DNA of 64,000 nt, taken from positions 7,926-71,925 of the forward strand of contig CAKOVH010000006.1 in the NCBI GenBank assembly GCA_934121885.1, read 5' to 3'. Positions 9,513-53,534 of the stretch are shown piece by piece (positions within the stretch are counted from its first letter, which is position 1; the number at the start of each line of letters is the position of its first letter). Both the position numbers and the translations under genes were made by a program. This DNA comes from an uncultured Clostridia bacterium (GTDB lineage: Bacteria; Bacillota; Clostridia; TANB77; CAG-508). Below the pieces are notes generated by a model that did no database searches, was not told the origin of the DNA, and saw only the letters and a program-made list of their open reading frames with translations.

Positions 9513-9530
9513 ATTCTACCTCCAATAGTA

Positions 9531-10332
9531 TTAGTGTTTACTTTTTGCGAAAAAACCTTTTACTTTCGTAAAGAATCCTTCTCCTTTTCCTGGAATGTTC
9601 ATTTCTACATTTTCTCCTAGAATTCTTCTAGCAATTTCAGAATAAGCCTTTCCAGATGGTGCTCTATTATTTGTTACAACAGGTTCACCTTTATTAGTTT
9701 GAGTTATGATAAATTCATCATCAGGTACAACACCAATTAAATCTATTGATAATAAATCAACTATATCATCAACATCCATCATTTCACCCTTTTTTATCAT
9801 GTTTGGTCTAATTCTGTTTACAACTAATTCAGGATTTTTTATTTCAGATGCCTCTAATAATCCTACAATTCTATCAGCATCTCTTATTGCTGAAATTTCA
9901 GCTGTTGTTACAACAATTGCTCTATTTGCCCCAGCAATTGCATTTTTAAATCCTTGTTCAATTCCTGCTGGACAGTCGATTAATATGTAATCAAATTCTT
10001 CTTTAAGTTTTCCTATTAAATCTTTCATTTGTTCTTCATTTACTGCACTTTTATCTCTTGTTTGCGCTGCTGGTAGTAAGAATAGTTCATTAAAACGCTT
10101 GTCCTTTATTAAGGCTTGTCTTAATTTGCATTTTTCTTCTACAACATCAACAATGTCATATACGATTCTGTTTTCTAATCCCATGACTACATCTAGGTTT
10201 CTTAATCCTATATCAGTATCAACCAAAGCAACCTTTTTTCCTCTTAAAGCCAAAGCTGCACCTAAATTAGCTGTTGTTGTTGTCTTTCCTACTCCACCTT
10301 TTCCAGATGTTATGACTATAACCTCTCCCATA
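9531..10332 (-). CDS. minD: Septum site-determining ATPase MinD
   Basis: Deviant Walker A 'SGKGGVGKTTTTANLG'. The track ORF extends to 10385, but AAGGAGG precedes the ATG at about 10332 (MGEVIVITSGKGG), which gives a canonical ~266-aa MinD. Confidence 0.9.
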
Positions 10333-10400
10333 ATTTCCTCCTTGCTAATATTTAACAATTTTGTTTTATTTCTAAAAAAGTGCATTATTTAAACACATAT

Positions 10401-24822: not shown

Positions 24823-26346
24823 TTATTTATCAGTAAAATAGTATAAGTTTAAATCTTCACCTAGATGCCATTTTCCAATAAACTCAACTAATACATTTTT
24901 TTCTAATTGATATGATGGTGCCATCTTTACTTTTCCTGCTGAATCAACACATCCCCATAGTCCGTCTTTCTTAATACTTGCATATCCGAACTCATTTTGC
25001 TCACTTGCATCATCATATATGTAATCTACAATCACAATCCCATTTTTATCTACAAATCCATATTTTCCATCTTTTTTTGATAAGAAAATTGTATTGTCTT
25101 TTAATACCTCTTTTGATTGTTTCTCTTCAAATTTAAAATTGTAATATTTATAATTATCTTCAACTCTTACAATCATATAACCTTCATCTGTATTAATGTT
25201 TGAAACAATTCCTGTAAGTCTTACATTTAAATCTGTATCTAATAAATCAGATGTATAATCTGCATTTGTTGCCTCATAAAAGTTTACTGCTTCTCTATAT
25301 ATTAAATCAGAATATTTAGGTTCTAAAAGCACTGTTCCTTCCTTGCTCATAATTCCATACTTATTATCAAGTTTTACAATATAGTTTGACCCTGTTGCAT
25401 ATTTTATATCTTGATATTTTATATCGATTGAAACATTATTTTCATCTATAGTTGTTAATCCATATTTTCCAGATTTTTTTACTATTGCATATTCATTGTT
25501 AATATCTATAATATCGTCATATGTTCCATCTAAGAATTTATCCCCAGTAGAGTCAATAATTTTCCACTTTCCACTTTCTTTTACAACATAATAGTTTCCG
25601 TTTCCGTAAATTGATTTAACGTCATCATATTTAACCTCTACAACTTCTTTTTTGTTCCATGCTATAACACCATATTTATTTTTATCATTTTGTACAATAT
25701 AGCCATTTTCGTATTTATCTGAAATTGCCTTTATATTTTTATATTGATTTTCAATTAACACTGCGCCAGTATTATCTATAAGTCCAAGTTTACTATCTTT
25801 ACTTGTAATTAGACTGTTTGTTGTTCCTTTTAATGCTGTAATAGAATCATAATCACATGGAACTATGTTATTTCCCTTAAAATCAATAATTCCATATTTA
25901 CCATCTTTTTTTACTTTTAATATACCTGTTTCGTACCAAAGAACATTATCAGTATCATAATTTTCAATGGCTTCAACAGTATCATATCCTTGTAGGATTT
26001 CTTCATTTTTTTCATTTAATACCTTTGTTTTATATGTATTATTTGTATAATCTACATCATATGTACATATAAATATTCCTTTAGTTGTATCTGGAATAAC
26101 AATAGCCTCATCATAGCTAGGTGTAATTACAACATTTCCTTTCGAATCTATTACTCCCCATTTATCATTTGAATACACTGCAAAATATTTCTGTGCAACA
26201 GCTTTTTCTACTATTTTACCACTTGATGACATAAGTTTTTTTATACCTATTACAAACATAATAATTACTGCAATTGCAATTATAACAGCAAATACTTTTT
26301 TCATGTTTAGCTTTTGTTCACCATCATACCTTTTTCCTCTACTCAT
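24823..26346 (-). CDS. WG-repeat (KWG/KYG beta-repeat) protein with an N-terminal membrane anchor
   Basis: At least nine 'K(W/Y)G(V/I/L)ID' repeats (KWGVID, KYGIID, KLGLID, KYGVIA, KWKIID, KYGLTT, KYGIMS, KYGFVD, LWGCVD). N-terminal TM 'VFAVIIAIAVIIMFVIGI'. Confidence 0.6.
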   Translation of the reverse strand: MSRGKRYDGEQKLNMKKVFAVIIAIAVIIMFVIGIKKLMSSSGKIVEKAVAQKYFAVYSNDKWGVIDSKGNVVITPSYDEAIVIPDTTKGIFICTYDVDYTNNTYKTKVLNEKNEEILQGYDTVEAIENYDTDNVLWYETGILKVKKDGKYGIIDFKGNNIVPCDYDSITALKGTTNSLITSKDSKLGLIDNTGAVLIENQYKNIKAISDKYENGYIVQNDKNKYGVIAWNKKEVVEVKYDDVKSIYGNGNYYVVKESGKWKIIDSTGDKFLDGTYDDIIDINNEYAIVKKSGKYGLTTIDENNVSIDIKYQDIKYATGSNYIVKLDNKYGIMSKEGTVLLEPKYSDLIYREAVNFYEATNADYTSDLLDTDLNVRLTGIVSNINTDEGYMIVRVEDNYKYYNFKFEEKQSKEVLKDNTIFLSKKDGKYGFVDKNGIVIVDYIYDDASEQNEFGYASIKKDGLWGCVDSAGKVKMAPSYQLEKNVLVEFIGKWHLGEDLNLYYFTDK

Positions 26347-26479: not shown

Positions 26480-29032
26480 TTACTTTTTAGTAACTTTAGC
26501 AACCATAACTGTCATATCGTCTTTTTGCTTTCCAAAGTCATTATCGATTGCTTCATTCATAATAATATCTGCAATCTTTTGTGCATCATCTGTTTCAATA
26601 TCTTCTAATAAATATTTAACCCATAACTGTTTATTTAAATATTCTTTGTTAGAATCTATAATACCATCACTACACATAACTAAAATATCGCCATTTTGTA
26701 AATCATAATCATATACCACTAGGTCTGCCTGATCTAATATTCCAGCTGGCAATGTAATTGATTTTAACAATTGTACCTCTCCATTTCTTTTTACGAAGGT
26801 TGGACAAGCACTATTTTTTATAAATTCCATATTACCACTAAACAAATCTAATATTTGTATATCAAGTGTTGCATACATATCTTCACTTGTATTTGCTGAT
26901 AATGTAGAGTTAATTAATTTTAATGAAACATCTTTTTCAAATCCTGCGGATAATAGTCTTTCAAGCATTTTTATGGCTATTTTACTACTTTTCATTGCTT
27001 CTGGTCCAGAACCCATCCCATCACTAATTGCCATTAAATATTTACCATCATCTAATTTTAAATTTAAGCATGTATCTCCTGAAACTGGTGAACCTGCTTT
27101 TGTTGACTTAGACATTCCAACTTGTACTTTATATTTATCATCTGATAAATATGAAAATTTACATTGTTCTTTTTGGTTTCGTAATCCACATTCTTCACTT
27201 TGTATAATCATTTTATCGTCAATTACTTTACTTACAATTTTGCCAATCTTTTTGATATCGCATTCTGTACCATCTGTACTTTCACAAGTATTAGTATACA
27301 CAGTAACTGCATACCTTCCTGAACTTGACTTCTTTATTGCTATATCTTGTATAGTAATTTCCTTTTGCTCAAGCAGTCTTTTTATTTCCTCTTTTTGCTT
27401 TGCAAAAATATCCTCATCTTTTTGTTTAATATCTTCAGCCATTTTTGATATTGCCTCAGATACACCCTTTAATTGAGATGATACATTTTTCTTGCTTTCA
27501 TCCATTTTCTTTTTCCATATGAAATTTATTTTACTCATACGATAAGAATAATTAAGAATTTTAACAATTTTATACACATCTTCTTTTGCTTTTTCATTTG
27601 TATCTTCAAATCCAACAATATAATTATTATGTTTTTCCAAAATTTTAATTAAATCTTTTTCAGTAATAATATCATTTTCAAGTAAACAATTAAATATATC
27701 CTTTACCATATCATCATCTGGATAATACATTGTTTCATAAAGCATATTATCTTCTAAGCCATTTAAATACTGTCTAAATTCTTCAGTAAATATTTCTATA
27801 TTTGATTTTTCTTGCTGTTTTAATTCATCTTCTGAAAGTATTGTAGCTGCTGCCTCTTGGTAGCTTTCCGCCATATCAAATATTGTTTCTGACATACTAT
27901 TTAATTTATATATTGTATCTTTATTTTCTTCTAAACTTCTTCCTGTTGTTTCTGGAAGTAATTTAGTTTTACCAAATAAATCTTCAATATTAATTTTTAT
28001 ATTTTTAGGAATAGCAATCAATCCAAGTGATGCAATTAATATTTCCTGAAACATAATTAAAGGAACTGTATTTCCATTTGATGCATATGCAATAACTATA
28101 TTTCCAATTATAAATCCAACAATTACACCTATTCTTCCGAACTTATTTAATAGTCCTGATATCATTCCAGATACAGCATAAACAGCAATCATTATAGGTT
28201 CAGAACCACCTATAATACCTAAAACAACGCCAATTGTTATTCCACCTGTAGCTCCAACTAAGATTCCGTTTTTCCATCCTAATACTAGAACTATTAAAAT
28301 ACTAAGTATATTCTTAACTGAAAATCCCCATATATTAAAATCGCCAAATGAAGAAATTGCAATGGTTAAAAGTAGGCTTGTTCCCATTACTTCTTCAATT
28401 GTGAAAGCTTTTTTATCTCCAAACTCTTTTATCATTTTTATGGAATTAGCAAATATTTTGTAAAATATATATGTTGTCATTCCAAGCATTACACCTGTTA
28501 ATAAATCAAATACATAAAATGTTCTAAAAAATAATGGCACAACTTGTACAATAACTACTGCAAAAAATAATTGTCCGCCAACTCTTCTCATTTCGTTTGT
28601 ATCATTTTGAAGTCTTGGTCTAATAATAAGTACTAAAATAAAGAAAACAAGTGAAGTTGCTATATATGTTATAAGACTATTAGTGCCAAACTTTATAAAT
28701 GTACCTATTAACGATAATACATACATAATTCCTATAGCTTGTCCATTACTAAATGCTGCTGCAAGAAGAGCAAGTCCAAATGGTACAATTGAAAATATTA
28801 AGTTATTAGAACTTAAGCCCACCATAGAAACCATAAAGCTAATTATATATAGTGCAATATTTTGTTTATCAAATAGTCTTTTTATAATTTCTTTAACATT
28901 TTGTTTTTTGTTTGGCTTAACATCCTCATTTAATTCTTCTGAAAAATCTCTTGATATATTTTGAAACATCCTTACCACCTCTACTTTTTTATTTACGCAT
29001 ACTATTTTTATTGCTTGTACATTATAGTTCAT
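26480..29032 (-). CDS. spoIIE: Stage II sporulation protein E (polytopic membrane PP2C phosphatase)
   Basis: 850 aa. About 10 N-terminal TM helices, a central regulatory region, and a C-terminal PP2C domain ('MAISDGMGSG', 'VMCSDGI'). Hairpin terminator downstream at about 26420-26460. Confidence 0.9.
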   Translation of the reverse strand: MNYNVQAIKIVCVNKKVEVVRMFQNISRDFSEELNEDVKPNKKQNVKEIIKRLFDKQNIALYIISFMVSMVGLSSNNLIFSIVPFGLALLAAAFSNGQAIGIMYVLSLIGTFIKFGTNSLITYIATSLVFFILVLIIRPRLQNDTNEMRRVGGQLFFAVVIVQVVPLFFRTFYVFDLLTGVMLGMTTYIFYKIFANSIKMIKEFGDKKAFTIEEVMGTSLLLTIAISSFGDFNIWGFSVKNILSILIVLVLGWKNGILVGATGGITIGVVLGIIGGSEPIMIAVYAVSGMISGLLNKFGRIGVIVGFIIGNIVIAYASNGNTVPLIMFQEILIASLGLIAIPKNIKINIEDLFGKTKLLPETTGRSLEENKDTIYKLNSMSETIFDMAESYQEAAATILSEDELKQQEKSNIEIFTEEFRQYLNGLEDNMLYETMYYPDDDMVKDIFNCLLENDIITEKDLIKILEKHNNYIVGFEDTNEKAKEDVYKIVKILNYSYRMSKINFIWKKKMDESKKNVSSQLKGVSEAISKMAEDIKQKDEDIFAKQKEEIKRLLEQKEITIQDIAIKKSSSGRYAVTVYTNTCESTDGTECDIKKIGKIVSKVIDDKMIIQSEECGLRNQKEQCKFSYLSDDKYKVQVGMSKSTKAGSPVSGDTCLNLKLDDGKYLMAISDGMGSGPEAMKSSKIAIKMLERLLSAGFEKDVSLKLINSTLSANTSEDMYATLDIQILDLFSGNMEFIKNSACPTFVKRNGEVQLLKSITLPAGILDQADLVVYDYDLQNGDILVMCSDGIIDSNKEYLNKQLWVKYLLEDIETDDAQKIADIIMNEAIDNDFGKQKDDMTVMVAKVTKK

Positions 29033-29244
29033 ATATTTTTATTTTTTTGTCATATTTAATACGTAATATAAAAAAGTTTTTTACATTATGTGATATGTTG
29101 TTTTATTTTTTTATTAAATAAAACAAATTATGTTTAACATTTTATCGTAAAATAGCGAAAATTTCAATATATTTTTGATAATTGTGTGGATTACCATTAA
29201 AAATATCTACTTTTCAAATTACATGTGGATATTTTTTTAAAACA

Positions 29245-29284
29245 AAAATACCCCAAACTTCAAATTGAAATTTTAGGGTATTTT
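29245..29284 (-). terminator. Putative terminator after the tandem giant-protein operon
   Basis: 'aaaataccccaaa...tttagggtatttt': 13-bp stem with 1 mismatch, flanked by A/T runs. Confidence 0.4.
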
Positions 29285-29310
29285 TGTTTATACTTTATTA
29301 AGTACTACTT

Positions 29311-32300
29311 TTATTTTCTTAATACTTTTTTAATAATTAATGTAATGCCTCCAATTAAGATTAATCCAATTGTAATACCTAATATGTAGTAGATAGGTGA
29401 TGCTCCAAATGGTGGTAATATAATTACCTTTTCTGCTACACTTGCATCAACTTCTTGTGCATCCTCTAATGGATTTTGGTTTCCTACTACTGAGTAAGCC
29501 ATTCTTCTACCAACTATATTACTTGTACTTACAATTTCAGTTATATTTCTGTATGTTAAGTCATCACTCTTATTTTCTGCTGTTATTAATTGTGATAATA
29601 CAAGAGTTTTTTCATTAACTTCACCTGGTTTTAAGTCTTTAGATAATTCAGATGTTTGGATAATTGTATTAAACTTACTTACATTGTCTGTTAATTTTGC
29701 ATTTACTAAGTTTTGATTTATTAAATTGTCCTTACTTATTACTGACCATCCACTATTTCTACTATCGCTACTATTAAATTGTAAATTATTTGCTACGTAA
29801 TCTACTACTTGGTTAGCATTTGTTGTTACAACATTACCTGATTGCTTTCCTTTATAATAAAATTCTTTTCCATCATAATCTACTTCTCCAACATTTGCAA
29901 CTGCTATTCTATATGTAATTTCTATAGTTGCTCCATGCATTAATTCTTCATCCATTGTTAATTGTACTAAACCTTTGTCTGCATTTTTTACTAAATTATT
30001 AACCTCTTCTCTATATGAATATCTATTCTTGCCATCTTTTCCATAATACACTTCATATTTATCATTTTTCTTTTTGTCTGCTAAATTATATTCTGTATGT
30101 CCTTTCCAAACAACATTATCGCCTTTTTTATTTACATCAAATAGAACAGTATTATTTGCTAATGTAACTTTAATATTTGTTATAGATTTATTAATTTCAA
30201 GTTGTGCTTTTGGTCTTTCAACTAATCCAATGTTTATATTTTCAAGCTTATAACTTGGATTTCCATTTTCAGATTCACTTTGTAAATTACTTTCAACTTC
30301 TACAACTACTACACCAGATTCTGCTGTTGCTGTTGTATTTTTAATTAACTCTTGTCTTAACGCTTCTACTTCGCTAGCTGAATACTTATTTCCGTTATAG
30401 CTTGGTGTTTCATATAGTATAGAAAGAATTTCTGCAATTCCATTTGTTACATTTGTTTTACTATAGTTGTTTATTTGTTCTCTTACAGACCAAATGTCTT
30501 TTGCATTAGATACATTATCTTTCTTAGTTGCTATATTAAATCCGTATTCTCCTGTTTCATTTTGATTATTAGCATCCAAATATCCTTTATATCTTCCATC
30601 TAAGTCTGTTGTAGGAGTTTGATCAATCCCTGCTTGATATGTTGTCGTTTTGTAATCTTGACCATTATATGATTTTCCATTATTTTTGTCTGCTCCTGAT
30701 AGTCCTTCACCATATTTAAATCTTATTACATAATCACCTGGAATATAACTATCAAATTTATATGTTCCATCACTAGCTGTTTCCGTAGTTGCCCAAACAT
30801 ATTCTCCTTTTGGATTATTTATATCCCATACTGTTTTCTCAACTAATTGTACTTCAATTCCTGCAATTTTTGTTTCTTTATTGTCCATAATTCCATTTCC
30901 AATCATTGCATTTCCTTCATTTACAGTTCTTTCATCTTCCCAAGCAGTTCCATTTAACGTTCTTGTATTACCTGTAAGTTTTACATTTAATGCTGGAGCT
31001 GTATCTTCATCATCTTCATCATATAGTTCGTTCCTTCCTGGTTGTCCGTTTTTTCCCATAGAACTTGGTATTGAGTCTCTATCGACTCTACCTGCTATCA
31101 TATTGTCTCCAGTTACCTTATAACTATTTTCACCATTATAATGTGGTAATGTTGTCTTTCCACCCTTATAATATGTTTTAAATGCTCCAATTTCTGCTTT
31201 ATTTATTTTATCACCTAAACTTACTTGTCCATTACTATCATTTTTTAATTTGAATGTTAAATAAATATATTGTGTCTCTCCTGATTCTTGCTTTTTATCA
31301 ACATCTATTGTTATGGTTCCTTTTTTATTATCACTTGCTTTTGGAATTGCACCCCACTCAGCTACATTACCTTTTTCAAAGCTATCCTGTAACTTATCTC
31401 TTGTTTCTTTATCTTTTTTATAGTTTGTTTTACTTTGCCATGATAAACTTGGAATGTATTCAAATGTGCTATCGTAGTAATCATATACAGTTGTTGCATG
31501 TCCTAACATACTCATTGATTGGTTACGTACTGCTACTTTGTATGTTGCATATACTTCTAATAATCCATTGGCATTTCCATTCTTTCCTTTAAAGTTCCAA
31601 TCTGCATCATCTAAGTTTCTTTCATATCCACCAACAACATTTATTGTCCACCCTGCATATCCAGCATCACTATTTGCTTGTTGTCCATCTTCAGAATTTG
31701 CTAATTTATTATCATATCCATATACTTCAGTTTTTCCATTAATTTTTAAAGTTGCTACATATAAATCTTTCTTTAATGCCATATCAAACTCTATTCTTTG
31801 TGTAATACCAAAGTCTATATGTTTAATACTATCGTTATCATCATATACTGCTTTATATGTTGTACCAGATACAGTTTTTATGTCTTTACCTATTACAAAC
31901 TGATCATGTTTTGGATATTTAACAAGTGCATCTTTTCCATCGCTACCTGTGAATGCTGATAAAGTAAATATTCCTGGTTCATTATAATATTGTGTTCTTT
32001 GATCATCATATCTTAATTGTTCAACTGTGTATCCTTCATTACCATCTATTTCTTCGAATTTCTTATTTAGTAAATCTCTATCACTTGTTGTTTCGGTAGC
32101 TATAGAGTGTTTGTCATCTAATTGATCTGTATATATTGTATTTTCATATTGTTGTCCATTATACTTAAATTCAACATAATATTTTTTCATTGCATCAAGT
32201 TTTTCAAATTTATATTTACCTTCACCATCTGTAGATTTTTGCTCAACAACTTTATTATCCTCATCGTAAAGAATTACTGGTATATTATTTACAGGTTTTT

Positions 32301-33960
32301 CAGAATCTGCTCTTTGTCCATCAGGAAGAGTTTCCTTACCACCTTTTTCATCTTCCCATACTATTCCTTCAATATCCATTGTGATGTCTATATTTTCTAT
32401 TTCTAATTCTTGTTTATAAAGACTTCTTACTGCATCTGCTGCAATTAAGTTTTGTACAACAGAATCTGATGAAGAATAACTACAATTATATGGTCCACAA
32501 TCTTCATAACAATTAGGTCTTGTATGTGTATGTTCTGTTTTATAACAAGTCTTTTGTATTGTATTTCCTTTTTCATCAGTAGTAGTTCCGTTACATTCCT
32601 CAGTATGTGTGTGTTCAGTTTTTCTACAACTTAAATGGTCATGGTCTACTCTTGTCCTTGAATGTGAAAAACTAATCTGATGTTTTTCACCTTTATAATA
32701 TGTATACTCACCATTAGCTAACATATATTTGAATTCTACTTTTAATGTAATATATGAAACCCTATTTGGATCATCTACACTTAATCCTGCATTTGGATCA
32801 CTAAATATAATTTGAAAATTTTGGTCTGTTTCTGGATATACTTGTTTTGTTTCATCAACTTTTGAAACATTTTCTGGTTCAAAATATTTTGGTGTTTCAG
32901 CACTTCTATCAAGATTAGTTGCTTTATCTACTAATATAATTTTTTCTATTTTTATATTATCTTTTACCAATTTCTTTTCACTATTATATCCAACTACTAC
33001 CATGTTTGATATTCCTGAAAAAGATATTCCACTTTTTCCATCTCTATTTTTTCCGTTTTCTTCTGTATATTTTATTTGAAATGGTCCTACTGTATACTTT
33101 TTATTTTTCTGATCTACTTTTGTTGTAACATCATCGATACTTGTTAAATCTTGAGGGTTTAATCCTTGATCTTTTCGTACAATTTCATCGTAATCTGCAT
33201 AATTTTTAGCTGTTTGTGTTAAAGGAGATTGACTTATAGTAGTATCTGATGTAGAAGTAACCAAACCTCCATCATATCCTGTTCCTCCTAAATTCCAAAT
33301 AGCTCCTTGCTTATCTTTTGTCCATTCTCCATTAGGTTCATTTGATGCAATATATGCTAATGCTGGAGGCAATTTTACAGTTCTTTTAGCTGTCCATTTT
33401 ACAGGTGTCCAATAATGTCCAATGTTTATTCCATTATACAACAATCCAGTTTGCCAGCCTCTTGAACCGCTAATATTCCATTCGCTACCATCAGGGTAAA
33501 CGTTATGTGCTACATATCCGCCTTTTCCTCCATTATATTGCTTTTCTAGATAAAATTTATCATAATGGTTTAAATAGCAATCACCCTTCTTATTATTTTC
33601 ATCAGCAAGTTGTGTATAATATTCATTATATGTTATATCCCACACATATGGTATGTGTGCATCAGGCTGAATACAATAAACTTGATATCCAGCTTTTGCA
33701 GGTACACGGGTATTAGTACCATTTGTGTGTCTATATGCATTAAAAGTATAACTATCATAAGTCCATGTTCCAAAATTAGTCTTATAAGAATATGTATTAG
33801 GGTCTTTTTCACCATTTATTAATGTTCCTGGACTTGCAGTATTAGTTGTATTTCCTGTTTCTGCACTTGAAATATTTCTAGTTATATAAAATATTCCAAA
33901 AGTAGTAAGTAATACTAAAAATATAGATAATAAACATATTTTTATAATTTTATTTTTCAT
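29311..33960 (-). CDS. Giant secreted cell-surface protein (1549 aa) with Cna-B/SdrD-B-type domains, a Cys/His-rich insert and a C-terminal TM anchor. Paralog 1 of 3.
   Basis: Signal peptide 'MKNKIIKICLLSIFLVLLTTFGIFYI'. Cna-B-like segments 'IPVILYDEDNKVVEQKSTDGEGKYKFEKLDAMKKYYVEFKY' and 'IAGIEVQLVEKTVWDINNPKGEYVWATTETASDGTYKFDSYIPGDYVIRFKY'. C-terminus 'VIILPPFGASPIYYILGITIGLILIGGITLIIKKVLRK', with no LPXTG. Start is 17 nt after the paralog-2 stop with an AAAGGAGGG RBS, so they are co-transcribed. Confidence 0.8.
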   Translation of the reverse strand: MKNKIIKICLLSIFLVLLTTFGIFYITRNISSAETGNTTNTASPGTLINGEKDPNTYSYKTNFGTWTYDSYTFNAYRHTNGTNTRVPAKAGYQVYCIQPDAHIPYVWDITYNEYYTQLADENNKKGDCYLNHYDKFYLEKQYNGGKGGYVAHNVYPDGSEWNISGSRGWQTGLLYNGINIGHYWTPVKWTAKRTVKLPPALAYIASNEPNGEWTKDKQGAIWNLGGTGYDGGLVTSTSDTTISQSPLTQTAKNYADYDEIVRKDQGLNPQDLTSIDDVTTKVDQKNKKYTVGPFQIKYTEENGKNRDGKSGISFSGISNMVVVGYNSEKKLVKDNIKIEKIILVDKATNLDRSAETPKYFEPENVSKVDETKQVYPETDQNFQIIFSDPNAGLSVDDPNRVSYITLKVEFKYMLANGEYTYYKGEKHQISFSHSRTRVDHDHLSCRKTEHTHTEECNGTTTDEKGNTIQKTCYKTEHTHTRPNCYEDCGPYNCSYSSSDSVVQNLIAADAVRSLYKQELEIENIDITMDIEGIVWEDEKGGKETLPDGQRADSEKPVNNIPVILYDEDNKVVEQKSTDGEGKYKFEKLDAMKKYYVEFKYNGQQYENTIYTDQLDDKHSIATETTSDRDLLNKKFEEIDGNEGYTVEQLRYDDQRTQYYNEPGIFTLSAFTGSDGKDALVKYPKHDQFVIGKDIKTVSGTTYKAVYDDNDSIKHIDFGITQRIEFDMALKKDLYVATLKINGKTEVYGYDNKLANSEDGQQANSDAGYAGWTINVVGGYERNLDDADWNFKGKNGNANGLLEVYATYKVAVRNQSMSMLGHATTVYDYYDSTFEYIPSLSWQSKTNYKKDKETRDKLQDSFEKGNVAEWGAIPKASDNKKGTITIDVDKKQESGETQYIYLTFKLKNDSNGQVSLGDKINKAEIGAFKTYYKGGKTTLPHYNGENSYKVTGDNMIAGRVDRDSIPSSMGKNGQPGRNELYDEDDEDTAPALNVKLTGNTRTLNGTAWEDERTVNEGNAMIGNGIMDNKETKIAGIEVQLVEKTVWDINNPKGEYVWATTETASDGTYKFDSYIPGDYVIRFKYGEGLSGADKNNGKSYNGQDYKTTTYQAGIDQTPTTDLDGRYKGYLDANNQNETGEYGFNIATKKDNVSNAKDIWSVREQINNYSKTNVTNGIAEILSILYETPSYNGNKYSASEVEALRQELIKNTTATAESGVVVVEVESNLQSESENGNPSYKLENINIGLVERPKAQLEINKSITNIKVTLANNTVLFDVNKKGDNVVWKGHTEYNLADKKKNDKYEVYYGKDGKNRYSYREEVNNLVKNADKGLVQLTMDEELMHGATIEITYRIAVANVGEVDYDGKEFYYKGKQSGNVVTTNANQVVDYVANNLQFNSSDSRNSGWSVISKDNLINQNLVNAKLTDNVSKFNTIIQTSELSKDLKPGEVNEKTLVLSQLITAENKSDDLTYRNITEIVSTSNIVGRRMAYSVVGNQNPLEDAQEVDASVAEKVIILPPFGASPIYYILGITIGLILIGGITLIIKKVLRK

Positions 33961-33977
33961 CTTTTTCCCTCCTTTCT

Positions 33978-36900
33978 TTAAACATTCTTTTTATTTAAAA
34001 TTCTTTTTTTAATTTCAATTATTCCAAATCCAAGAAGTATAACAACTCCTAATGTAATCGTTGTATATGCTATAATTTTACCAGTTACAATTGATATAAC
34101 AATATCTGCCCTTGATAAATCGTCCTCATCAGTTACTCTGTTGCCTGGTGTTGAGTCAATATCTGTTAAACCTTGTTCATTATAACTTTCATAAATTTCA
34201 GCATTATTATTTAAAACTCCTAAAGCATTCTCTGTAATCTTCTTAGTGATAATTAAGGTTACTTCCTTTGATTCTCCTGGTTTAATAATTTCATTTGCTA
34301 AACTTGCATTATATACATTTCCGTTTTCAGATAAATACCAATCTTTATTTAGTTCTGTATTAAATCCTACTCCTTCTGGTAAATAATCTACTATTTTCTT
34401 AACATATCCAGGAATTGCACCTTCGTTTGTAACTACTATTTTGTATTCAATAATAGCACTACTCTTTCCTAAATTACTTCCTAATACTTCTATTTTACCA
34501 ACTCTTGAGTTTTCATATGTATATGTTTTTGTTCCTATTGTTGGTGTTGTTAAAGCTATTTTACTTACATATTTGTCCAATTTCAAATCGAATTTTTCTG
34601 CTGAATACACACCAATGTCAATATCTCTTACATGATTATTTGTAATCTCTATAGCATCTGTTGTAGCTGCAATCGTTCTCTTTCCATCTAATGTTATATT
34701 AATATTAATTACATCTGAGTTTAGTGATGTATCAACATCTTTTGCTTGATATGTTGTTAAGCTATATCTTGATGCATCATATAGGAATATAACAATATAT
34801 TCTCCTTGTGGTAAGTTATTAAATTCATATTTTCCACTACTATTAGTTGTTGTAATTTTATCTGAATTTGTATCTATATCTTTTACAATAGAGTTATCCT
34901 TTTTGTTTAATAGTATTACAGATATTCCTGGTAATATTGATTCGTCTGCATCACGTTTACCGTCCTTATTACTATCTATCCAAGCAGTTCCTGTAATTTT
35001 ATATCTATTAGTACTAGGTTTTGAAGGATCCGTTTCTGTTTCTCCATTTTCATGTATTTTTTCATAATATTCAATTATATTTGTAACTGTATTTGTTTCT
35101 ACTTCAGTAAATCCCTTTGCTGAAACAGCAACTTTATTTTTGACTTCTTTGTCATTTTTATTTGCTAATAATTTTGCTTTTGCAAATATTTGTATATCAA
35201 CACTATCGCCAGCTAGTAAAGGATCTATTTTTATTAAAACCTTTCCATTTGTTTCTTTTGTTACTATTTGCTCTTTTTCAGCATACGTATATGTAGCTTT
35301 TACAAAGTATAGTTCATTTGGTAATTTATCAGATATTATAATATCTCTTACTGAATTACTACCTTTATTAGTAATTTTGAAATTATATGTAACAGTTTCT
35401 CCTTCTTTTATATATTTAGAAGATGCTACCAAATTTGTAAACTCTAATTCAACCTTTTCAGTACGATACTCTAAAACATTAGAGCATTGTTCTTCTATTT
35501 CATCTGCTTTTACTTTAGCATAAAATGTTGCCTTTCCATTTGGTTCCTTTATTTCTGTGTTTAAAACAATAGCTTTGCTACTTTGTAACGTTCCTATATT
35601 AACTATAACAATGTTATTTTCTTCATCATATTCTACCCCTTCTGTAACCCCTTCATCATCTAATACACTATTTTTAATAATAGCATCTTTGAATTTAACT
35701 CCTTTTGTTAATGGGATAGTAACAACCGTATTTTTTAGCTCATCTGCTACCATATAAGTATTTCTTATTTTAATTCTATGCTCAATTATCATTCCACTAT
35801 TTAAGACCATATCTTCTTTAGTCCAGCTCTCAATGTTAATATCTATATTGCTTTGTCTTACTGCTAATTTCACTTCATTAGAAACTATCTTTCCAGATAT
35901 ATTGCTAAAAGTAATATCAACTTTTGAAATAATATCTGAAGAAGCATCACTTGCAACTTTCATGTCATATGAAACCTCTTTCGTTTGTTCTTTTTCAATA
36001 GCACCTACTTCAATAGTTTCTGGTGTAATAGATTCTACATTTTCTGGTTTAGTAATATTTACCTTAACATTATCCGCCGTTAAAGAGCCTATATTCTTTA
36101 TTATAACTTTCATTTTAATTGTCTGGCCTCTCCTAGCAACTGTTACTCCTTCAGGTAATACTGCTGAAAGTTCAGCTGTTAAAATTGCACCTTTTCCTGT
36201 TGTCATTCCCACAATTGCTGAATTTTTAGATTCTGAAATTGTTCCAATTGTTGAATTATTATTATAATATACCTTGTACATTTCATATACATCATTGTTA
36301 TGTGTCAAGTTAGCTGGAATTTCTACATCATATGAAAATTTTAATGTTCCACCTGCATTCATTTCATATCCATTCATTACTATTAAATATGACTTTGCTC
36401 CTGTTGTTGCTGTTTCTGTCCATCCATTTGCAGTATTGCTTAATTCATTTGTTGCATCTGTATTTTCTGAATAATATACTTTATATTTTGAAGAATCTAT
36501 TCCACTTAATGTTATATTTGTTTTTAATGTTGTACTAAATGTTGAGCCAAATGCTTCTGCTGTATCAATGTTTTTGTTATCTTTTGTAGGAATTCTTCCT
36601 AATATAACTATATTTGATATTTTATTAGAATAGTTATTTATAACTGTACCATTAATTTTTGCTGTTCTTGCATCTGCATAAGTTGCAATTGTTCCTATTA
36701 CACCTTCATCAGATATTGATAATATATCACTTTTTCCTTCTGCATAATTTGATATTCCATTTGCTGCAACAACTCCGTTAGGTGCTACAAAGTTAATGTC
36801 TGCCTGAATTCTTCCAGATGTTGTTGTAGCTACTGTATTTGCATTTGTAAAGTCCATAACAATTTTATTACTATTGCTTGGAGTTAACGTATCTACTGTT

Positions 36901-38975
36901 AAATCTGTATTTAATATTACTATTGTTCCTTTATATTCTGCATCAATTGTATATTTTGTTTGTTTTCCTTCTAATACTACATTAATTACTTGTGCTCCAT
37001 TTTCTGTAGTAATTGTTGGATCTTTTAATTTTAATCCATTTGCCATTAATATATTATGAGATTTTAAATCTACCTTTTTAATATATGAAGGTAATTTTAT
37101 TTTTAATGTAGGATTTGTGTATAATGCATTACTTATACTTGATGTATCTAGAGTTGCTCTTATCTCAACATTTTCATTTTTTACAACTGTTGATAAATCT
37201 TTTTTACTAACACTTAATTCTACTACAGATTTTGCTTCTGTTAATGGAATATTTAATGTCGCAGATGCTGTATCTGTATAATATGTTTCATCTTGTTTCA
37301 CATCCAAATATGTTGATGTGCAAGATACACTTGTCTTCATATTTGTAAATGTTTTCATTTGTTCTAACGTATAACCTTGTTCTACATTAAATGCCTTTTC
37401 TACATATATTACTAATTTTCCTTCACCAATTGGTCCTCTTGTTTTTAAGTTCTCATCTTTTGAATATGCAACAAACATTATTTGATTGTTATTTGCACTT
37501 GAAATATCTACTACATAATTTCCATCACTATCTTTGTTAGTATCTTTGTTAATTGTTGCAAATTTTTTCCCATTTGTGCTACATATATCAATTGTTCCAT
37601 CTTCTCCTAGAATCTTCTTAAAGCTTAATTCACTTACTTTTATTGTTTTATTATATGCATAGTTGTTTCCAGATACTGTTGTAGGATAACTTGACGAACT
37701 TCCTGATATTTGTAAATCGTCAATATTTTGTGTAATTTTTAATTCTCCTCTTGTAGCTTGCGATTCATATACTATTACACCATATCTTGTCCAATATGTT
37801 GTTTCTTTTCTATCTGCTTCACTTGCACTATAATTTGCATATATTTGACCTTTACTTACAGACTCACTGCCTAATACTTCAGCTTTAATAAGGCTTACGC
37901 CTTCTTTTGGTGTAATTACATCTGTTTGTTCAGCATAGATTTTTATTCCGCTTGCTGATGTTTTTATATCATCATATTCGCTTACTTGAACATTTACATT
38001 ATATTTAAAAGTTGTTGGAAGTCCTTGTGATTTATTTATTGCATTTGATATCTCATCACTTCTATATACACAAGTGATAATATATTCATCTTCTTTGTCT
38101 TTTGCCCAGTTTATTATATTGTCGCCATTATTTACTATAATGCTTACTTTTCCCTGTTCTTGGTCATAAGTGTAATTATCTGGTCCGAAATTTAACCCTT
38201 CTTTATCACCATTAGTTGCTTCTGTGCTATTTGCAACAACTGCCACTTCTTTAGCGTTTGTTCCCAATATATCTGGTAGCATTACCGATATTTCATTTCC
38301 TTTAACAGGTAATTTTCCATAACTTATTTTTGTTTTTATTTGAACTATAATTCTTGGACTATCAGGATATATAATGCAATTTACCACTTCATTACTAACG
38401 TTCGTAACATCTTTCAATTGTTCTCCTAGTTCCCAAGTTAACTTATTTACTATTTCTTTTGATACACCTTTTTCTTTTCCATTTGCGTCTACATATGTTC
38501 CTTGGAAAATTGCTTTAGTTTCTTTAGCAAAAAAGTCTGATGAAACTGTATCACTTTCAAGTATTGAAACTGGAACCTCTATAGTTACATCTGAACCATT
38601 ATTTAATTGCTTTAATGCTATTATATTGCTTTCTTTATTTACACTTTGAACATTGCTATTTTCTATATTTCCTGCAATTTTAAAGTTTACATTATCAAAG
38701 CTTATTTGTGCATTTTTTAAGTATCCTGCATTTTTAACTTTTACATTAACAAAAAGTTTTGTTGTTGCATCATACTTGTTCTTTTCAGTGTGTCCTCCTC
38801 CTTGAAAATATGCATTAAATTCTACGTTAGAATTTCCAGTTGCTGTTGTTTGTCCTGCAAGCTCTGCGTCTGTAAGAGCATATGATATTCCATACATTCC
38901 TAAAATTGACAAATTTGCCCCCGCAAGTACAATAACTAACATTACTGCAATTAGTTTTTCAAATAACTTGTTCAT
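33978..38975 (-). CDS. Giant secreted cell-surface protein (1665 aa) with DUF11/'conserved repeat domain' and Cna-B-type modules and a C-terminal TM anchor. Paralog 2 of 3.
   Basis: Signal peptide 'MNKLFEKLIAVMLVIVLAGANLSILG'. DUF11-like 'GETVTYNFKITNKGSNSVRDIIISDKLPNELYFVKATY'. Cna-B-like 'ILPGISVILLNKKDNSIVKDIDTNSDKITTTNSSGKYEFNNLPQGEYIVIFLYD'. C-terminus 'ADIVISIVTGKIIAYTTITLGVVILLGFGIIEIKKRILNKKNV'. AGGAGG RBS at the start. Confidence 0.8.
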   Translation of the reverse strand: MNKLFEKLIAVMLVIVLAGANLSILGMYGISYALTDAELAGQTTATGNSNVEFNAYFQGGGHTEKNKYDATTKLFVNVKVKNAGYLKNAQISFDNVNFKIAGNIENSNVQSVNKESNIIALKQLNNGSDVTIEVPVSILESDTVSSDFFAKETKAIFQGTYVDANGKEKGVSKEIVNKLTWELGEQLKDVTNVSNEVVNCIIYPDSPRIIVQIKTKISYGKLPVKGNEISVMLPDILGTNAKEVAVVANSTEATNGDKEGLNFGPDNYTYDQEQGKVSIIVNNGDNIINWAKDKEDEYIITCVYRSDEISNAINKSQGLPTTFKYNVNVQVSEYDDIKTSASGIKIYAEQTDVITPKEGVSLIKAEVLGSESVSKGQIYANYSASEADRKETTYWTRYGVIVYESQATRGELKITQNIDDLQISGSSSSYPTTVSGNNYAYNKTIKVSELSFKKILGEDGTIDICSTNGKKFATINKDTNKDSDGNYVVDISSANNNQIMFVAYSKDENLKTRGPIGEGKLVIYVEKAFNVEQGYTLEQMKTFTNMKTSVSCTSTYLDVKQDETYYTDTASATLNIPLTEAKSVVELSVSKKDLSTVVKNENVEIRATLDTSSISNALYTNPTLKIKLPSYIKKVDLKSHNILMANGLKLKDPTITTENGAQVINVVLEGKQTKYTIDAEYKGTIVILNTDLTVDTLTPSNSNKIVMDFTNANTVATTTSGRIQADINFVAPNGVVAANGISNYAEGKSDILSISDEGVIGTIATYADARTAKINGTVINNYSNKISNIVILGRIPTKDNKNIDTAEAFGSTFSTTLKTNITLSGIDSSKYKVYYSENTDATNELSNTANGWTETATTGAKSYLIVMNGYEMNAGGTLKFSYDVEIPANLTHNNDVYEMYKVYYNNNSTIGTISESKNSAIVGMTTGKGAILTAELSAVLPEGVTVARRGQTIKMKVIIKNIGSLTADNVKVNITKPENVESITPETIEVGAIEKEQTKEVSYDMKVASDASSDIISKVDITFSNISGKIVSNEVKLAVRQSNIDINIESWTKEDMVLNSGMIIEHRIKIRNTYMVADELKNTVVTIPLTKGVKFKDAIIKNSVLDDEGVTEGVEYDEENNIVIVNIGTLQSSKAIVLNTEIKEPNGKATFYAKVKADEIEEQCSNVLEYRTEKVELEFTNLVASSKYIKEGETVTYNFKITNKGSNSVRDIIISDKLPNELYFVKATYTYAEKEQIVTKETNGKVLIKIDPLLAGDSVDIQIFAKAKLLANKNDKEVKNKVAVSAKGFTEVETNTVTNIIEYYEKIHENGETETDPSKPSTNRYKITGTAWIDSNKDGKRDADESILPGISVILLNKKDNSIVKDIDTNSDKITTTNSSGKYEFNNLPQGEYIVIFLYDASRYSLTTYQAKDVDTSLNSDVININITLDGKRTIAATTDAIEITNNHVRDIDIGVYSAEKFDLKLDKYVSKIALTTPTIGTKTYTYENSRVGKIEVLGSNLGKSSAIIEYKIVVTNEGAIPGYVKKIVDYLPEGVGFNTELNKDWYLSENGNVYNASLANEIIKPGESKEVTLIITKKITENALGVLNNNAEIYESYNEQGLTDIDSTPGNRVTDEDDLSRADIVISIVTGKIIAYTTITLGVVILLGFGIIEIKKRILNKKNV

Positions 38976-39008
38976 AGTAACCTCCTAAAAATTATTATCT
39001 CACACTAT

Positions 39009-39037
39009 ATTATACGACATTTTCAAGCATTTTTCAA
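39009..39037 (-). promoter_or_regulatory. Consensus sigma-A promoter (TTGAAA - 17 nt - TATAAT) for the giant-protein operon
   Basis: Reverse complement reads 'cattgaaaaatgcttgaaaatgtcgtataatatagtg'. On the plus strand, -10 is ATTATA at 39009-39014 and -35 is TTTCAA at 39032-39037. The 5'UTR is about 30 nt to the AGGAGG RBS. Confidence 0.55.
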
Positions 39038-39324
39038 TGTTTTTTTAGTTTTTCTTAAACTTTTTATGTATAATACTGCAAAATAATATATTTATTATTA
39101 ATTATATAAAATTTTAGCATTTTTTCGACATTTTTCAATGGCTTATATTGGTAAATTTCCCATAAAACGGAAAATTTACTTACGGAAGTATTTTCTTTAA
39201 TCTTATATTAAATTTATATTACATTTTTATTACAATTTTACATTTGCATATTTTTATCACATTTTTTAGAAATTCGAATATAATATTATAGTTTTATTAT
39301 CATATATTGTAATGAGGTGATTTT

Positions 39325-39492
39325 ATGAACAATCAAAATAATCAAATAAACATGGCACAGCTTATGTCTATGCTTTCTAAAATGGATAAAAAAGACTTAG
39401 AAAATGGGTTAAGTCAAGTAAGTAAAATGCTAAATTCTAAAGATGCAGATTCTATCATAAATGAAATAAGAAAAAACACGAATAATCAGTAG
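39325..39492 (+). CDS. Small hypothetical protein (55 aa), Asn/Met/Lys-rich
   Basis: Not in the ORF track (under 60 aa). ATG at 39325 is preceded by a GAGGTGA RBS. Sequence: MNNQNNQINMAQLMSMLSKMDKKDLENGLSQVSKMLNSKDADSIINEIRKNTNNQ. Confidence 0.4.
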   Translation: MNNQNNQINMAQLMSMLSKMDKKDLENGLSQVSKMLNSKDADSIINEIRKNTNNQ

Positions 39493-39518
39493 CCGTATAT
39501 TTTTAAGGAGGAATTATT

Positions 39519-39914
39519 ATGAATGATGATATGTCTAATCTTATGGAGCAAATTAATAATATGATGAAGAATAATCAAATTCCAGATGATATTAAAAATA
39601 TCATAAATAGTATGTCTCAAAATTCATCAAATTCAGGAAATACAGATTCTAAAAATAAAGATACTTCATCTTCTGAAAATACTTTCTCTGATTCTTCTAT
39701 GCCCGAATTTGATATGGCAACAATTATGAAGCTAAAACGTGTTATGGAATCTATGAAATCTAGTTCTAATGACCCCAGAGCAAATTTGCTAAAATCACTA
39801 AAACCTTATTTGAAGGAAAGTCGAAAAGAAAAAGTTGATCAATATATACAAATTTTTGGAATGGGTAAAGTTTTTGAGATGCTTAACCCTTTAGGTGGTG
39901 ATTCTCGAAAATGA
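39519..39914 (+). CDS. Small hypothetical protein (131 aa). Low-complexity Ser/Asn-rich centre and conserved-looking C-terminal region.
   Basis: AAGGAGG RBS. The N-terminus 'MNDDMSNLMEQINNMMKNN' resembles that of the 55-aa ORF. C-terminus 'ANLLKSLKPYLKESRKEKVDQYIQIFGMGKVFEMLNPLGG'. Confidence 0.5.
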   Translation: MNDDMSNLMEQINNMMKNNQIPDDIKNIINSMSQNSSNSGNTDSKNKDTSSSENTFSDSSMPEFDMATIMKLKRVMESMKSSSNDPRANLLKSLKPYLKESRKEKVDQYIQIFGMGKVFEMLNPLGGDSRK

Positions 39915-40252
39915 TGTATACATATCCATATTATGGGTTTCCGAGAAGGTACACAAGATATAATGCATATTATCCACAGTCTGCTAAGGAAAATATGACT
40001 AGTTATCCACACAATTCACACATAAATTCCGAAAATACTAATAATACAAGCAAAACCTCCTTAGCACTTCAAAATGTAGAAGCCTCAAAAGAAAATAGAG
40101 ATTCAGCTCCTGATAAACCTTTATTTGAACTATTTGGTATAAAATTATATTTTGATGATGTCCTTCTTATTTGTCTTATATTCTTTTTATATCAAGAAGG
40201 TGTCCAAGATCAGTACTTATTTATTAGTTTAATACTTTTGCTACTTAGTTAG
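39911..40252 (+). CDS. Small hypothetical protein (113 aa): Tyr/Pro-rich N-terminus and a C-terminal hydrophobic segment
   Basis: Overlaps the previous stop (ATGA). 'MMYTYPYYGFPRRYTRYNAYYPQ...' then 'VLLICLIFFLYQ...LFISLILLLLS'. Confidence 0.45.
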   Translation: MMYTYPYYGFPRRYTRYNAYYPQSAKENMTSYPHNSHINSENTNNTSKTSLALQNVEASKENRDSAPDKPLFELFGIKLYFDDVLLICLIFFLYQEGVQDQYLFISLILLLLS

Positions 40253-40261
40253 TATTTGGAT

Positions 40262-40318
40262 ATAAAAAGTGAACCATCATTATTAAACTTTTTGGTCTAA
40301 TAATAATGGTTCACTTCA
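40262..40318 (-). terminator. Rho-independent terminator immediately downstream of minC
   Basis: 17-bp stem (gtgaaccatcattatta / taataataatggttcac, 1 mismatch) at 40269-40285 and 40298-40314 with a 12-nt loop. A U-tract follows on the minus strand (plus-strand 'ataaaaa' at 40262-40268). Confidence 0.6.
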
Positions 40319-40370: not shown

Positions 40371-40988
40371 TTATTCTAAAATCAATTCTCCTTTATTGTC
40401 TATGTATGCAAAGGTTTTTACCTCTATAATTCCAGATTCTTGTTTTTCAATTTCCTTTACAATGTCTGCTATTCTTATCTGTGCTGAGGTGATTTCTACA
40501 GCTTCAATTACAGCATCTCTATTTCCCTTTGCTCCAGCATGTGCTAAACCTCTTAGTGCACCTACCACAACAATATTTTCCCCTGCGATTACTTCTGCTC
40601 CAGGGTTAACATCTCCAATAATTACTAAGCTTCCCTCATACTCAATTCTTTGTCCTGAACGAAGAGAACCTTTGTGAAATTTAGTTTCAGATGTTGCAAT
40701 TTCCTTATAAAAACTTCTTTTTATTCCATGAAGTCCTAGTACCTTTGGACTATCAAATTCTATTCCAACATCTAAAAATCTTTTTATAAGTGATTGAATT
40801 TCATCCATTTCTTTATTTTTTAAAACCTTACCTGTAATAAATATTGGAGTTTTATCATCTTTATACAAGTTTTTTAGTTCTATCATCTTCTTTTTTAATT
40901 CTGCTATAATATCTCTTTGTTCTGCATATTCTTCAATTTTTATAATTACTTGATCTTTTTTCATACTAATATTAATATAATTCTTCAT
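40371..40988 (-). CDS. minC: Septum site-determining protein MinC
   Basis: 205 aa. C-terminal beta-helix repeats 'GSLVIIGDVNPGAEVIAGENIVVVGALRGLAHAGAKG'. Sits directly after the PBP2 gene. Confidence 0.85.
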   Translation of the reverse strand: MKNYINISMKKDQVIIKIEEYAEQRDIIAELKKKMIELKNLYKDDKTPIFITGKVLKNKEMDEIQSLIKRFLDVGIEFDSPKVLGLHGIKRSFYKEIATSETKFHKGSLRSGQRIEYEGSLVIIGDVNPGAEVIAGENIVVVGALRGLAHAGAKGNRDAVIEAVEITSAQIRIADIVKEIEKQESGIIEVKTFAYIDNKGELILE

Positions 40989-53303: not shown

Positions 53304-53534
53304 TATCCCTCCTTTCACACCACAATATTTACCTACATAATTTATATATTTATTATTAAAAACAATTCTCTAATTTGAGCATAGCACATTTTATTTTCAG
53401 CTTCAACACACATTTTCTTCCATTTTGCATAAATAAGGAAAAAACGCTAAAAACCTTTTTACGGAAATAGGCTTTCGCGTTTTTATTACATATTTATTAA
53501 ATTTCTATTACATTTTTGTAATAATTTGTAGTTT

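Follow-up and report, generated by a model that had tools for sequence, protein, structure and literature searches.

What do two giant, adjacent genes lying between spoIIE and minC encode in an uncultured gut bacterium of the class Clostridia? We addressed this question for a 64-kb stretch of DNA (hereafter the window, 64,000 nucleotides in full) taken from an 80.8-kb contig, in which two co-oriented open reading frames (ORFs), here named A and B, code for proteins of 1665 and 1549 aa. Only the product of a separate gene, C, ranks with them among the three largest proteins in the window. A sequence-only reading of the same DNA had grouped the three as one paralogous family of lineage-specific adhesins or surface fibres that could not be assigned to a characterised system. 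Our results lead to a more specific answer, in which A and B are probably Sec-exported, cell-anchored, rod-like surface proteins, and B most likely works as a TIE-type adhesin with a divergent thioester-domain-like head.

Protein B carries a divergent thioester-domain-like head

Thioester domains (TEDs) are marked by two motifs, [YFL]C-Phi-zeta in a beta-strand and TQxx-Phi-W on the central alpha-helix (PMC4450167, PMC6194298), and the N-terminus of B reads VYCIQPD and KQGAIWN, akin to both. Conservation was followed in a family of 35 full-length relatives, with residue counts taken over 36 members. Cys96 was found within [YF]C[IVM][QENS] in 35 of the 36, the remaining one being N-terminally truncated, and the second motif took the form KQxA[IL]W, in which Gln218 was present in 33/36 members and Trp222 in at least 90%, with Lys in place of the Thr of TQxx-Phi-W. 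An AlphaFold2 model of residues 36-520 (pLDDT 82, pTM 0.79) placed Cys96 in a predicted beta-strand (E58-61, fragment numbering) and KQGAIW in a predicted alpha-helix (H180-188), and the modelled head had the beta-barrel and three-helix bundle of the TED fold. Its closest structural matches were TIE proteins, with 5a0n and 6fwy also within the top 18; the scores of these matches were low, yet the enrichment of TEDs among them was far beyond chance. In both fold and motifs, B resembles TIE-type thioester adhesins.

Several searches nevertheless weigh against a thioester domain. Foldseek gave no match at E <= 0.001, the Pfam TED model was absent from B and six relatives even at E <= 10, and a profile of the B family run against PDB sequences matched no TED. 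Single-sequence phmmer searches of PDB sequences returned no match for either B or A, and when just the B head was put to a word-indexed homologue search, no more than two unnamed fragments came back, which offered no bridge to annotated TEDs. Furthermore, no invariant thioester-partner Gln stood in the expected place across the 36 family members; the thioester-forming Gln is a different residue from the Gln of the helix motif, and the candidates for it in B were Q284 (21/36), Q373 (33/36), and Q380 (30/36). The silence of Pfam, of the profile search, and of Foldseek, together with the lack of a fully conserved partner, would equally suit an alternative in which A and B are ordinary non-covalent fibrillar surface proteins and the B head is only a TED lookalike, its Cys having a redox, metal, or disulfide role and forming no thioester. 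We consider this alternative unlikely, as the Cys falls in the published strand motif, a TQxx-Phi-W-like motif falls in a helix, and Class II TEDs are reported to often lack a recognisable Gln motif (PMC4450167). Given that neither Pfam nor PDB yielded a match and no Gln could be pinned, we call the head of B divergent TED-like rather than a plain TED; its motifs and predicted fold suggest that the thioester is probably formed.

Behind the head, the stalk of B contains, as far as Pfam can see, two SdrD_B modules only (PF17210, 67.7 bits over two stretches, cutoff 29.7). Between the head and the first of them lies a Cys/His-rich insert that only some 25% of the B family carries; C484 and C493 were kept in 70-78% of members. 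This insert, which could be a metal site, was modelled less confidently than the flanking domains (means of 10-residue blocks, 61-89).

Protein A is a conserved stalk without a recognisable head

Modelling of A residues 35-600 gave successive beta-sandwiches matching Gram-positive adhesin and pilin modules. The rest of the protein adds DUF11 and SdrD_B modules (Table 1), the former lately given the name CLIPPER and identified as an isopeptide stalk domain of the CnaA-like type (PMC12617251). An NPCBM_assoc match at residues 948-1012 coincides with the weaker of the internal DUF11-like modules. In the terminal module, where the weak DUF11 match spans about residues 1508-1600, K1468, D1530, and N1590 are each conserved in at least 90% of sequences, and their order is that expected for a putative Lys-Asn isopeptide bond with a catalytic Asp. 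The sequence-only reading had given both giants SdrD-B and DUF11 modules; SdrD_B was indeed found in both and DUF11 in A, but no Pfam DUF11 match was obtained in B itself.

More than 120 full-length relatives of A were recovered, 1616-1727 aa long and 40-80% identical, nearly all of them metagenomic and none named. Conservation extended over the whole protein and was strongest at residues 600-950 and 1350-1665. Such a constant length, combined with conservation over the entire protein, is unusual for an adhesin. We describe A as a stalk-only, fibrillar-adhesin-like protein, built from CnaA/CLIPPER- and CnaB/SdrD_B-type modules.

The C-terminal tails resemble sortase sorting signals

A, B, and C each begin with a signal-peptide-like segment and end in a hydrophobic one, bearing out the signal peptides and C-terminal membrane anchors proposed earlier. 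The accompanying statement that A and B have no LPXTG is literally true, but it overlooks the layout of their tails. A sorting signal was taken here as an LPXTG-type pentapeptide 17-45 residues from the C-terminus. None of the pentapeptides SIVTG of A, LPPFG of B, and SLRTG of C is an LPXTG; those of A and B lie 33 and 30 aa from the C-terminus, and in all three proteins a hydrophobic segment and at least two basic residues follow, the tail of C continuing with a transmembrane (TM) helix and the basic KKYVTK. Members of the A family keep V-T-G at a level of 90% or more inside [SG][ILV]VTG, ahead of a TM helix and KKRVLNKK. Those of the B family keep ILPPFG, likewise at 90% or more, with LPPFG in 32/35 members, LPPTG in one (P0148), LTPFG in one, and a different C-terminus in one. 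The VTG column of A was aligned with the PFG column of B by hhalign. The tails of A and B therefore have, in sequence terms, the three-part layout of a sortase sorting signal with non-canonical pentapeptides.

Comparison with NCBIfam sorting-signal models gave mixed results. The tail of C passed TIGR01167 LPXTG_anchor (17.8 bits, cutoff 15.9), that of B had only a weak EF0750_LPXTG match (E 0.05), and that of A matched no NCBIfam sorting-signal model. This last result counts against sortase processing, and so do the lack of any ORF with a TLxTC-type sortase motif in the 64-kb window or in the flanks of about ten related loci and the lack of a sortase family among the Pfam-annotated genes on the rest of the 80.8-kb contig. 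We also know of no precedent among sortase substrates for the Phe that LPPFG has at the scissile position. Two routes are consistent with these tails: A and B are either cleaved and linked to the wall by a sortase whose specificity is unusual and whose gene lies elsewhere, or left as type-I membrane-anchored proteins. Since the C-termini are sortase-signal-like (SIVTG, LPPFG or LPPTG, SLRTG), the anchoring route may be conventional after all.

Three different architectures share one anchor cassette

Whether A, B, and C are paralogues was judged by pairwise and profile comparisons. BLASTP aligned A with B at an SdrD_B module only (E 2e-4) and A with C over the last ~200 aa only (28% identity, E 2e-12), and found nothing significant between B and C. 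Profile-profile alignment of the A and B families by hhalign gave a single match, joining A 1320-1662 to positions 1089-1665 of the B profile (probability 99.2%, E 2e-19). The shared region consists of the SdrD_B module, the CLIPPER-like module, and the tail, that is, the C-terminal third. The three giants are therefore different proteins on a common anchor cassette. The term "paralogous" therefore holds for the cassette that A and B have in common; it does not extend to C, which shares just its end with A and nothing with B, and homology along most of the length, as a three-member family would have it, was not found.

Gene C itself encodes two YDG domains, with weaker, sub-threshold matches to MBG, PKD-like, and OmpL47-type domains and no family match in its first ~500 residues; its terminal CLIPPER module scored 27.6 bits with DUF11. 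It sits between pcrA and an M23 peptidase gene, a place where Clostridium sp. CAG:508 (L008) lacks it. Just upstream of C, a spore Coat_F domain was noticed in an 81-aa ORF.

The cassette proved to be very widespread. With A 1455-1665 as query, an exhaustive search matched 2786 representative clusters at E <= 1e-3, of which 1074 reached E <= 1e-30, the clusters (about 2800) being defined at 50% identity. Proteins that end in the cassette range in length between 226 aa and well over 2000 aa, and others, of up to 6853 aa, contain it as internal repeats. Among the best 150 relatives, 136 end in a TM helix, mostly with [S/T/G]-[I/V/L]-x-T-G just before it, and T-G was invariant in an alignment of 80 such tails. 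When these 80 tails were compared with NCBIfam, LPXTG_anchor (10 tails) and Rumino_NPXTG "NPXTG-anchored protein" (7 tails) were the top families, all matches being weak. In sequence, then, the N-terminal architecture differs in each of A, B, and C, and what unites them is this very widespread anchor cassette at the C-terminus.

A and B form a two-gene operon

A and B are separated by a gap of 17 nt, and each has its own ribosome-binding site (RBS), as the sequence-only reading had it; similarly close spacing (16-20 nt) was seen in the related loci L001 and L003. The promoter that had been proposed for A, TTGAAA-17-TATAAT, was the best match of the region, scoring 11/12 as the top site of a 12-kb scan. 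In this DNA of 28% GC, however, promoter-like sites are not above chance (79 found versus 84 expected from shuffles), so the score alone proves nothing. What makes the promoter convincing is its conservation: the -35 and -10 hexamers and the 17-nt spacer are kept 61-68 nt upstream of the A start in seven related loci whose A proteins are only 44-51% identical. These loci represent six distinct genomes, as L001 and L002 have identical sequence. The letters kept upstream of the A orthologue include AAAATGTCGTATAAT, and the stretch AAAAT[GA]TCGTATAAT is almost invariant across the seven loci. On the other side, the hairpin after B had a minimum free energy (MFE) of -23.5 kcal/mol, compared with -7.2 +/- 2.5 for shuffled sequences (z = -6.4). 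With a conserved promoter and a strong terminator hairpin, the transcription unit is well delimited: a two-gene operon on the minus strand, bounded by the promoter at 39037 and the terminator at 29240.

The operon holds a conserved place in the chromosome

As had been noted, the operon lies between spoIIE and minC, inside a block that splits the division cluster. The split is genuine, given that minD, minE, and rodA are ~30 kb from minC, with the A-B operon inside the block. On the promoter side of A, a divergent trio of small ORFs is followed by minC, pbp2 (mrdA), mreD, mreC, mreB, radC, mecA, and an M23 peptidase gene. The order M23 peptidase - mecA - radC - mreBCD - pbp2 - minC - (small ORF) - A - B - spoIIE - WG-repeat protein was found in L003-L010, and minC - A - B - spoIIE was recovered in Clostridium sp. 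CAG:508, CAG:567, and several human and mouse gut metagenome-assembled genomes; the two named relatives, the nearest ones to this lineage, presumably belong to GTDB order TANB77, family CAG-508. Because this side of the split was present in all relatives examined, the splitting of the usual mreBCD-pbp-minCDE-rodA cluster is ancestral to the lineage. Identities across the syntenic loci were ~75% for MreB and ~60% for SpoIIE, compared with 44-50% for A and 33-43% for B. The A-B pair is thus a fast-evolving but ancestral, core-chromosomal feature of the lineage, and the description of A and B as lineage-specific surface-fibre or adhesin genes in one operon stands, with more than 120 relatives of A and a syntenic locus behind it.

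Several further observations concern the surroundings. L001 and L002 carry the A-B pair twice in tandem, with four giants in a row of A-like/B-like pairs at positions 1-20129 (A 51% identical); in L002, the extra B-like gene was called as two ORFs (1279 + 645 aa) rather than as one of 1964 aa. The B orthologue was called as two ORFs in L003 (15139-21669; 1411 + 763 aa) and as three in L004 (14373-19630; 456 + 665 + 633 aa), and these splits could be due to pseudogenisation, phase variation, or assembly or frameshift errors. The 131-aa product of the divergent trio is kept at the same position, with 46-64% identity, in the relatives where this side was recovered, and its sole family match is a weak YtzH-like one (E 0.007); the 113-aa product has a hydrophobic C-terminal end. 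The WG-repeat protein downstream of spoIIE is syntenic in L001, L005, L006, L008, and L010. A terminator-like hairpin directly after minC is consistent with minC ending its transcription unit and not running on into minD. Elsewhere in the window, among housekeeping genes, a 667-aa protein has the domains of a type IV secretion system (T4SS) coupling protein, as read from the gene table of locus L012.

Table 1. Features of the A-B operon, its protein products, and neighbouring genes (window coordinates unless a locus is named)
Feature	Position	Strand	Basis or remark
Gene A ORF, 1665 aa	33978-38975	-	ORF call, Pfam/NCBIfam matches, >120 full-length homologues
Gene B ORF, 1549 aa	29311-33960	-	ORF call, Pfam, 35 full-length relatives
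Sigma-A-type promoter	39009-39037	-	TTGAAA 39037-39032, 17-nt spacer, TATAAT 39014-39009
RBS of A, AGGAGG, 5 nt before ATG	38981-38986	-	sequence reading
RBS of B, GGAGGG, 6 nt before ATG, inside the A-B gap	33967-33972	-	sequence reading
Intrinsic terminator hairpin, 3' of B	29240-29289	-	MFE versus shuffles, U-rich 3' arm
B ~45-300, thioester-domain-like head	33061-33828	-	Cys96 in YCIQ (codon 33673-33675); KQGAIW 217-222 (33295-33312)
B ~441-495, Cys/His-rich insert, duplicated C-x-KTEHTHT-x3-C	32475-32640	-	sequence, conservation counts
B ~530-640, first SdrD_B (CnaB-type)	32041-32373	-	Pfam SdrD_B in two stretches, CarboxypepD_reg 553-604; BLASTP to SdrD_B of A
B ~1000-1110, second SdrD_B, start of A-shared cassette	30631-30963	-	Pfam best stretch 1021-1104; hhalign
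B tail: LPPFG (1515-1519), hydrophobic helix, KKVLRK	29314-29418	-	
A 35-600, all-beta module chain, no distinct head domain	37176-38873	-	
A ~947-1030, weaker DUF11-like module	35886-36137	-	20.7 bits
A 1184-1295, DUF11/CLIPPER	35091-35426	-	PF01345 45.2 bits (cutoff 24.6); TIGR01451 43.4 bits (cutoff 24)
A 1328-1427, SdrD_B (CnaB-type), start of A/B-shared cassette	34695-34994	-	PF17210 49.4 bits (cutoff 29.7); hhalign to second SdrD_B of B
A 1462-1625, terminal CLIPPER-like module	34101-34592	-	DUF11 23.1 bits, E 1e-4, just under cutoff
A tail: SIVTG (1628-1632), hydrophobic helix, KKRILNKKNV	33981-34094	-	sortase-signal layout
Gene C, 1571 aa (1565 aa in public gene call)	48603-53318	-	third giant
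spoIIE	26480-29032		3' side of B
507-aa WG-repeat protein	24823-26346	-	PF14903 100 bits; directly downstream of spoIIE
Three small ORFs (55, 131, 113 aa)	39325-40252	+	divergent from A promoter
minC	40371-40988		
Terminator-like hairpin, 20-bp stem, after minC	40269-40314	-	
minD, minE, rodA	7868-10385		
667-aa protein, T4SS-DNA_transf, TrwB_AAD_bind, TraG-D_C	61862-63865	-	among housekeeping genes
81-aa ORF, spore Coat_F domain	L012 19015-19260		between pcrA and gene C in window

Proposed function and competing explanations

Under the reading we favour, the operon is probably transcribed in vegetative cells, because its promoter is of the sigma-A type. A and B would be exported by Sec and held by their C-termini in the membrane or wall. 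Their stalks, at ~1600 residues and ~120 residues per module, would comprise roughly a dozen beta-sandwich modules and project tens of nanometres from the cell. At the end of B, a buried Cys-Gln thioester would react with an amine of a ligand, whether of the host, of mucus, or of a neighbouring cell, and so form a covalent link, while A would act as a second, non-covalent fibre or as a spacer. A bolder version, which we regard as a long shot, is that [S/T/G]-Phi-x-T-G and LPPFG are sites of an uncharacterised TANB77-type sorting enzyme, perhaps a Phe-accepting sortase, that would link both giants to the wall or join the tail of B to A, giving a covalent two-protein fibre of >100 nm whose thioester tip would bind the mucosa.

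Other explanations of the pair start from parts of the same evidence. The occurrence of a TED-like protein and a stalk-only protein in one operon, the variant sorting pentapeptides of both, as often found in pilins, and the duplication of the pair as a unit in L001 and L002 would all fit a sortase-assembled fibre in which B forms the tip and is joined through LPPFG to a lysine of shaft A, like the TED-tipped pili of streptococci. We find this very unlikely, since searches within and beside the operon (~10 loci) and on the 80.8-kb contig found no sortase gene, A has neither a YPKN pilin motif (no YPK) nor an E-box, each protein carries its own complete stalk and anchor, and A and B each exceed known pilins three- to fivefold in size. 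Conserved synteny with mreBCD-pbp2-minC and spoIIE across the lineage, the unusually constant length and whole-protein conservation of A, and the small conserved divergent ORF with its weak YtzH-like match might instead suggest structural envelope or sporulation-linked proteins, such as an S-layer-like coat or a spore or forespore surface component. This too is improbable in our view: with a sigma-A-type promoter and a terminator to itself, the operon is not co-transcribed with its neighbours, no SLH, CWB2, or spore-coat domains were found in A or B, the domain set is that of adhesin stalks, and gene order alone does not indicate function. Finally, their size and metagenome-assembly origin raised the suspicion, which no result supports, that the giant ORFs are collapsed-repeat assembly artefacts (the refutation named by the sequence-only reading) or a recently acquired mobile island. 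The chance of this is negligible. No tandem or dispersed DNA repeats were found within 29000-39100, the GC content of the A-B region is that of its flanks, and the conserved flanks hold only housekeeping genes, with no integrase or transposase. The collection lists proteins identical to A and B on 4 and 7 contig entries, and full-length orthologues stand at the same locus in many genomes; the repeat scan, the multiple entries, the orthologues, and the GC content of the flanks together rule out an artefact or island.

Comparison with known systems

The statement that the giants are not assignable to a characterised system was too strong, as B is TIE-like in fold and motifs and A is a stalk-only relative of fibrillar adhesins. 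B follows the same plan as the TIE adhesins SfbI, CpTIE, BaTIE, and SaTIE, namely, a signal peptide, a TED-fold head, a CnaB-type stalk, and a tail of motif, TM segment, and basic residues (PMC4450167, PMC6194298). It differs from them in a head too divergent for the Pfam TED model or for profile search of PDB sequences, in ending with LPPFG instead of LPXTG, in the Cys/His-rich insert found in part of its family, and in being, at 1549 aa, far larger than BaTIE (construct 35-557). A, for its part, departs from CLIPPER-stalk fibrillar adhesins (PMC12617251) in having no recognisable adhesive head and modules that are not near-identical tandem repeats, without repetition at the DNA level, and in a length and sequence conserved in the manner of a housekeeping orthologue (full-length identity 40-80%).

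The tails of A and C, of the type [S/T/G]-[I/V/L]-x-T-G, resemble the NVQTG of CbpA and the SPKTG among the (S/P)PXTG substrates of Clostridioides difficile SrtB (PMC4155245), although tails of this type have no Pro at position 2 and B has Phe where the scissile Thr stands. NVQTG was considered as a precedent for the A-type tail; it is a weak one, because it was not cleaved by SrtB in vitro (PMC4155245). A further comparison is with the Tad-type pilus cluster of TANB77, whose type IV-like pilins of 143-236 aa are encoded with TadA/B/C/Z assembly genes and which, according to the available text of PMC11680825, is likewise a conserved surface structure of the same uncultured gut clade (TANB77, family CAG-508). 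With such small pilins, that cluster rules out A and B as the published TANB77 "pilin". The available text of the same source makes no mention of the giants, which at only 40-50% identity would have missed its 80% similarity filter as given there; it also presents the TANB77/CAG-508 clade as the most consistent gut taxon enriched in checkpoint-blockade responders (PMC11680825).

There is precedent for TIE adhesins, for CLIPPER stalks, and for variant sorting signals. What is new is a TED-like head family missed by current sequence models, a conserved LPPFG tail in one family, the recognition of an invariant x-T-G ahead of the TM helix in a very common anchor cassette, and the conserved placement of the A-B operon in a clinically interesting uncultured gut clade. 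To our knowledge, the processing of this widespread x-T-G/LPPFG cassette has not been studied. Of the two proteins, one probably attaches to its target through a covalent bond. If an unusual sorting enzyme and a thioester-tipped fibre did exist, they would give a molecular handle on host contact in a clade enriched in immunotherapy responders. Taken together, A and B are a divergent TIE-type and fibrillar adhesin pair, that is, divergent versions of known Gram-positive adhesins and not a new kind of system; the operon leaves the understanding of these systems unchanged and extends the known adhesin classes into an uncultured clade.

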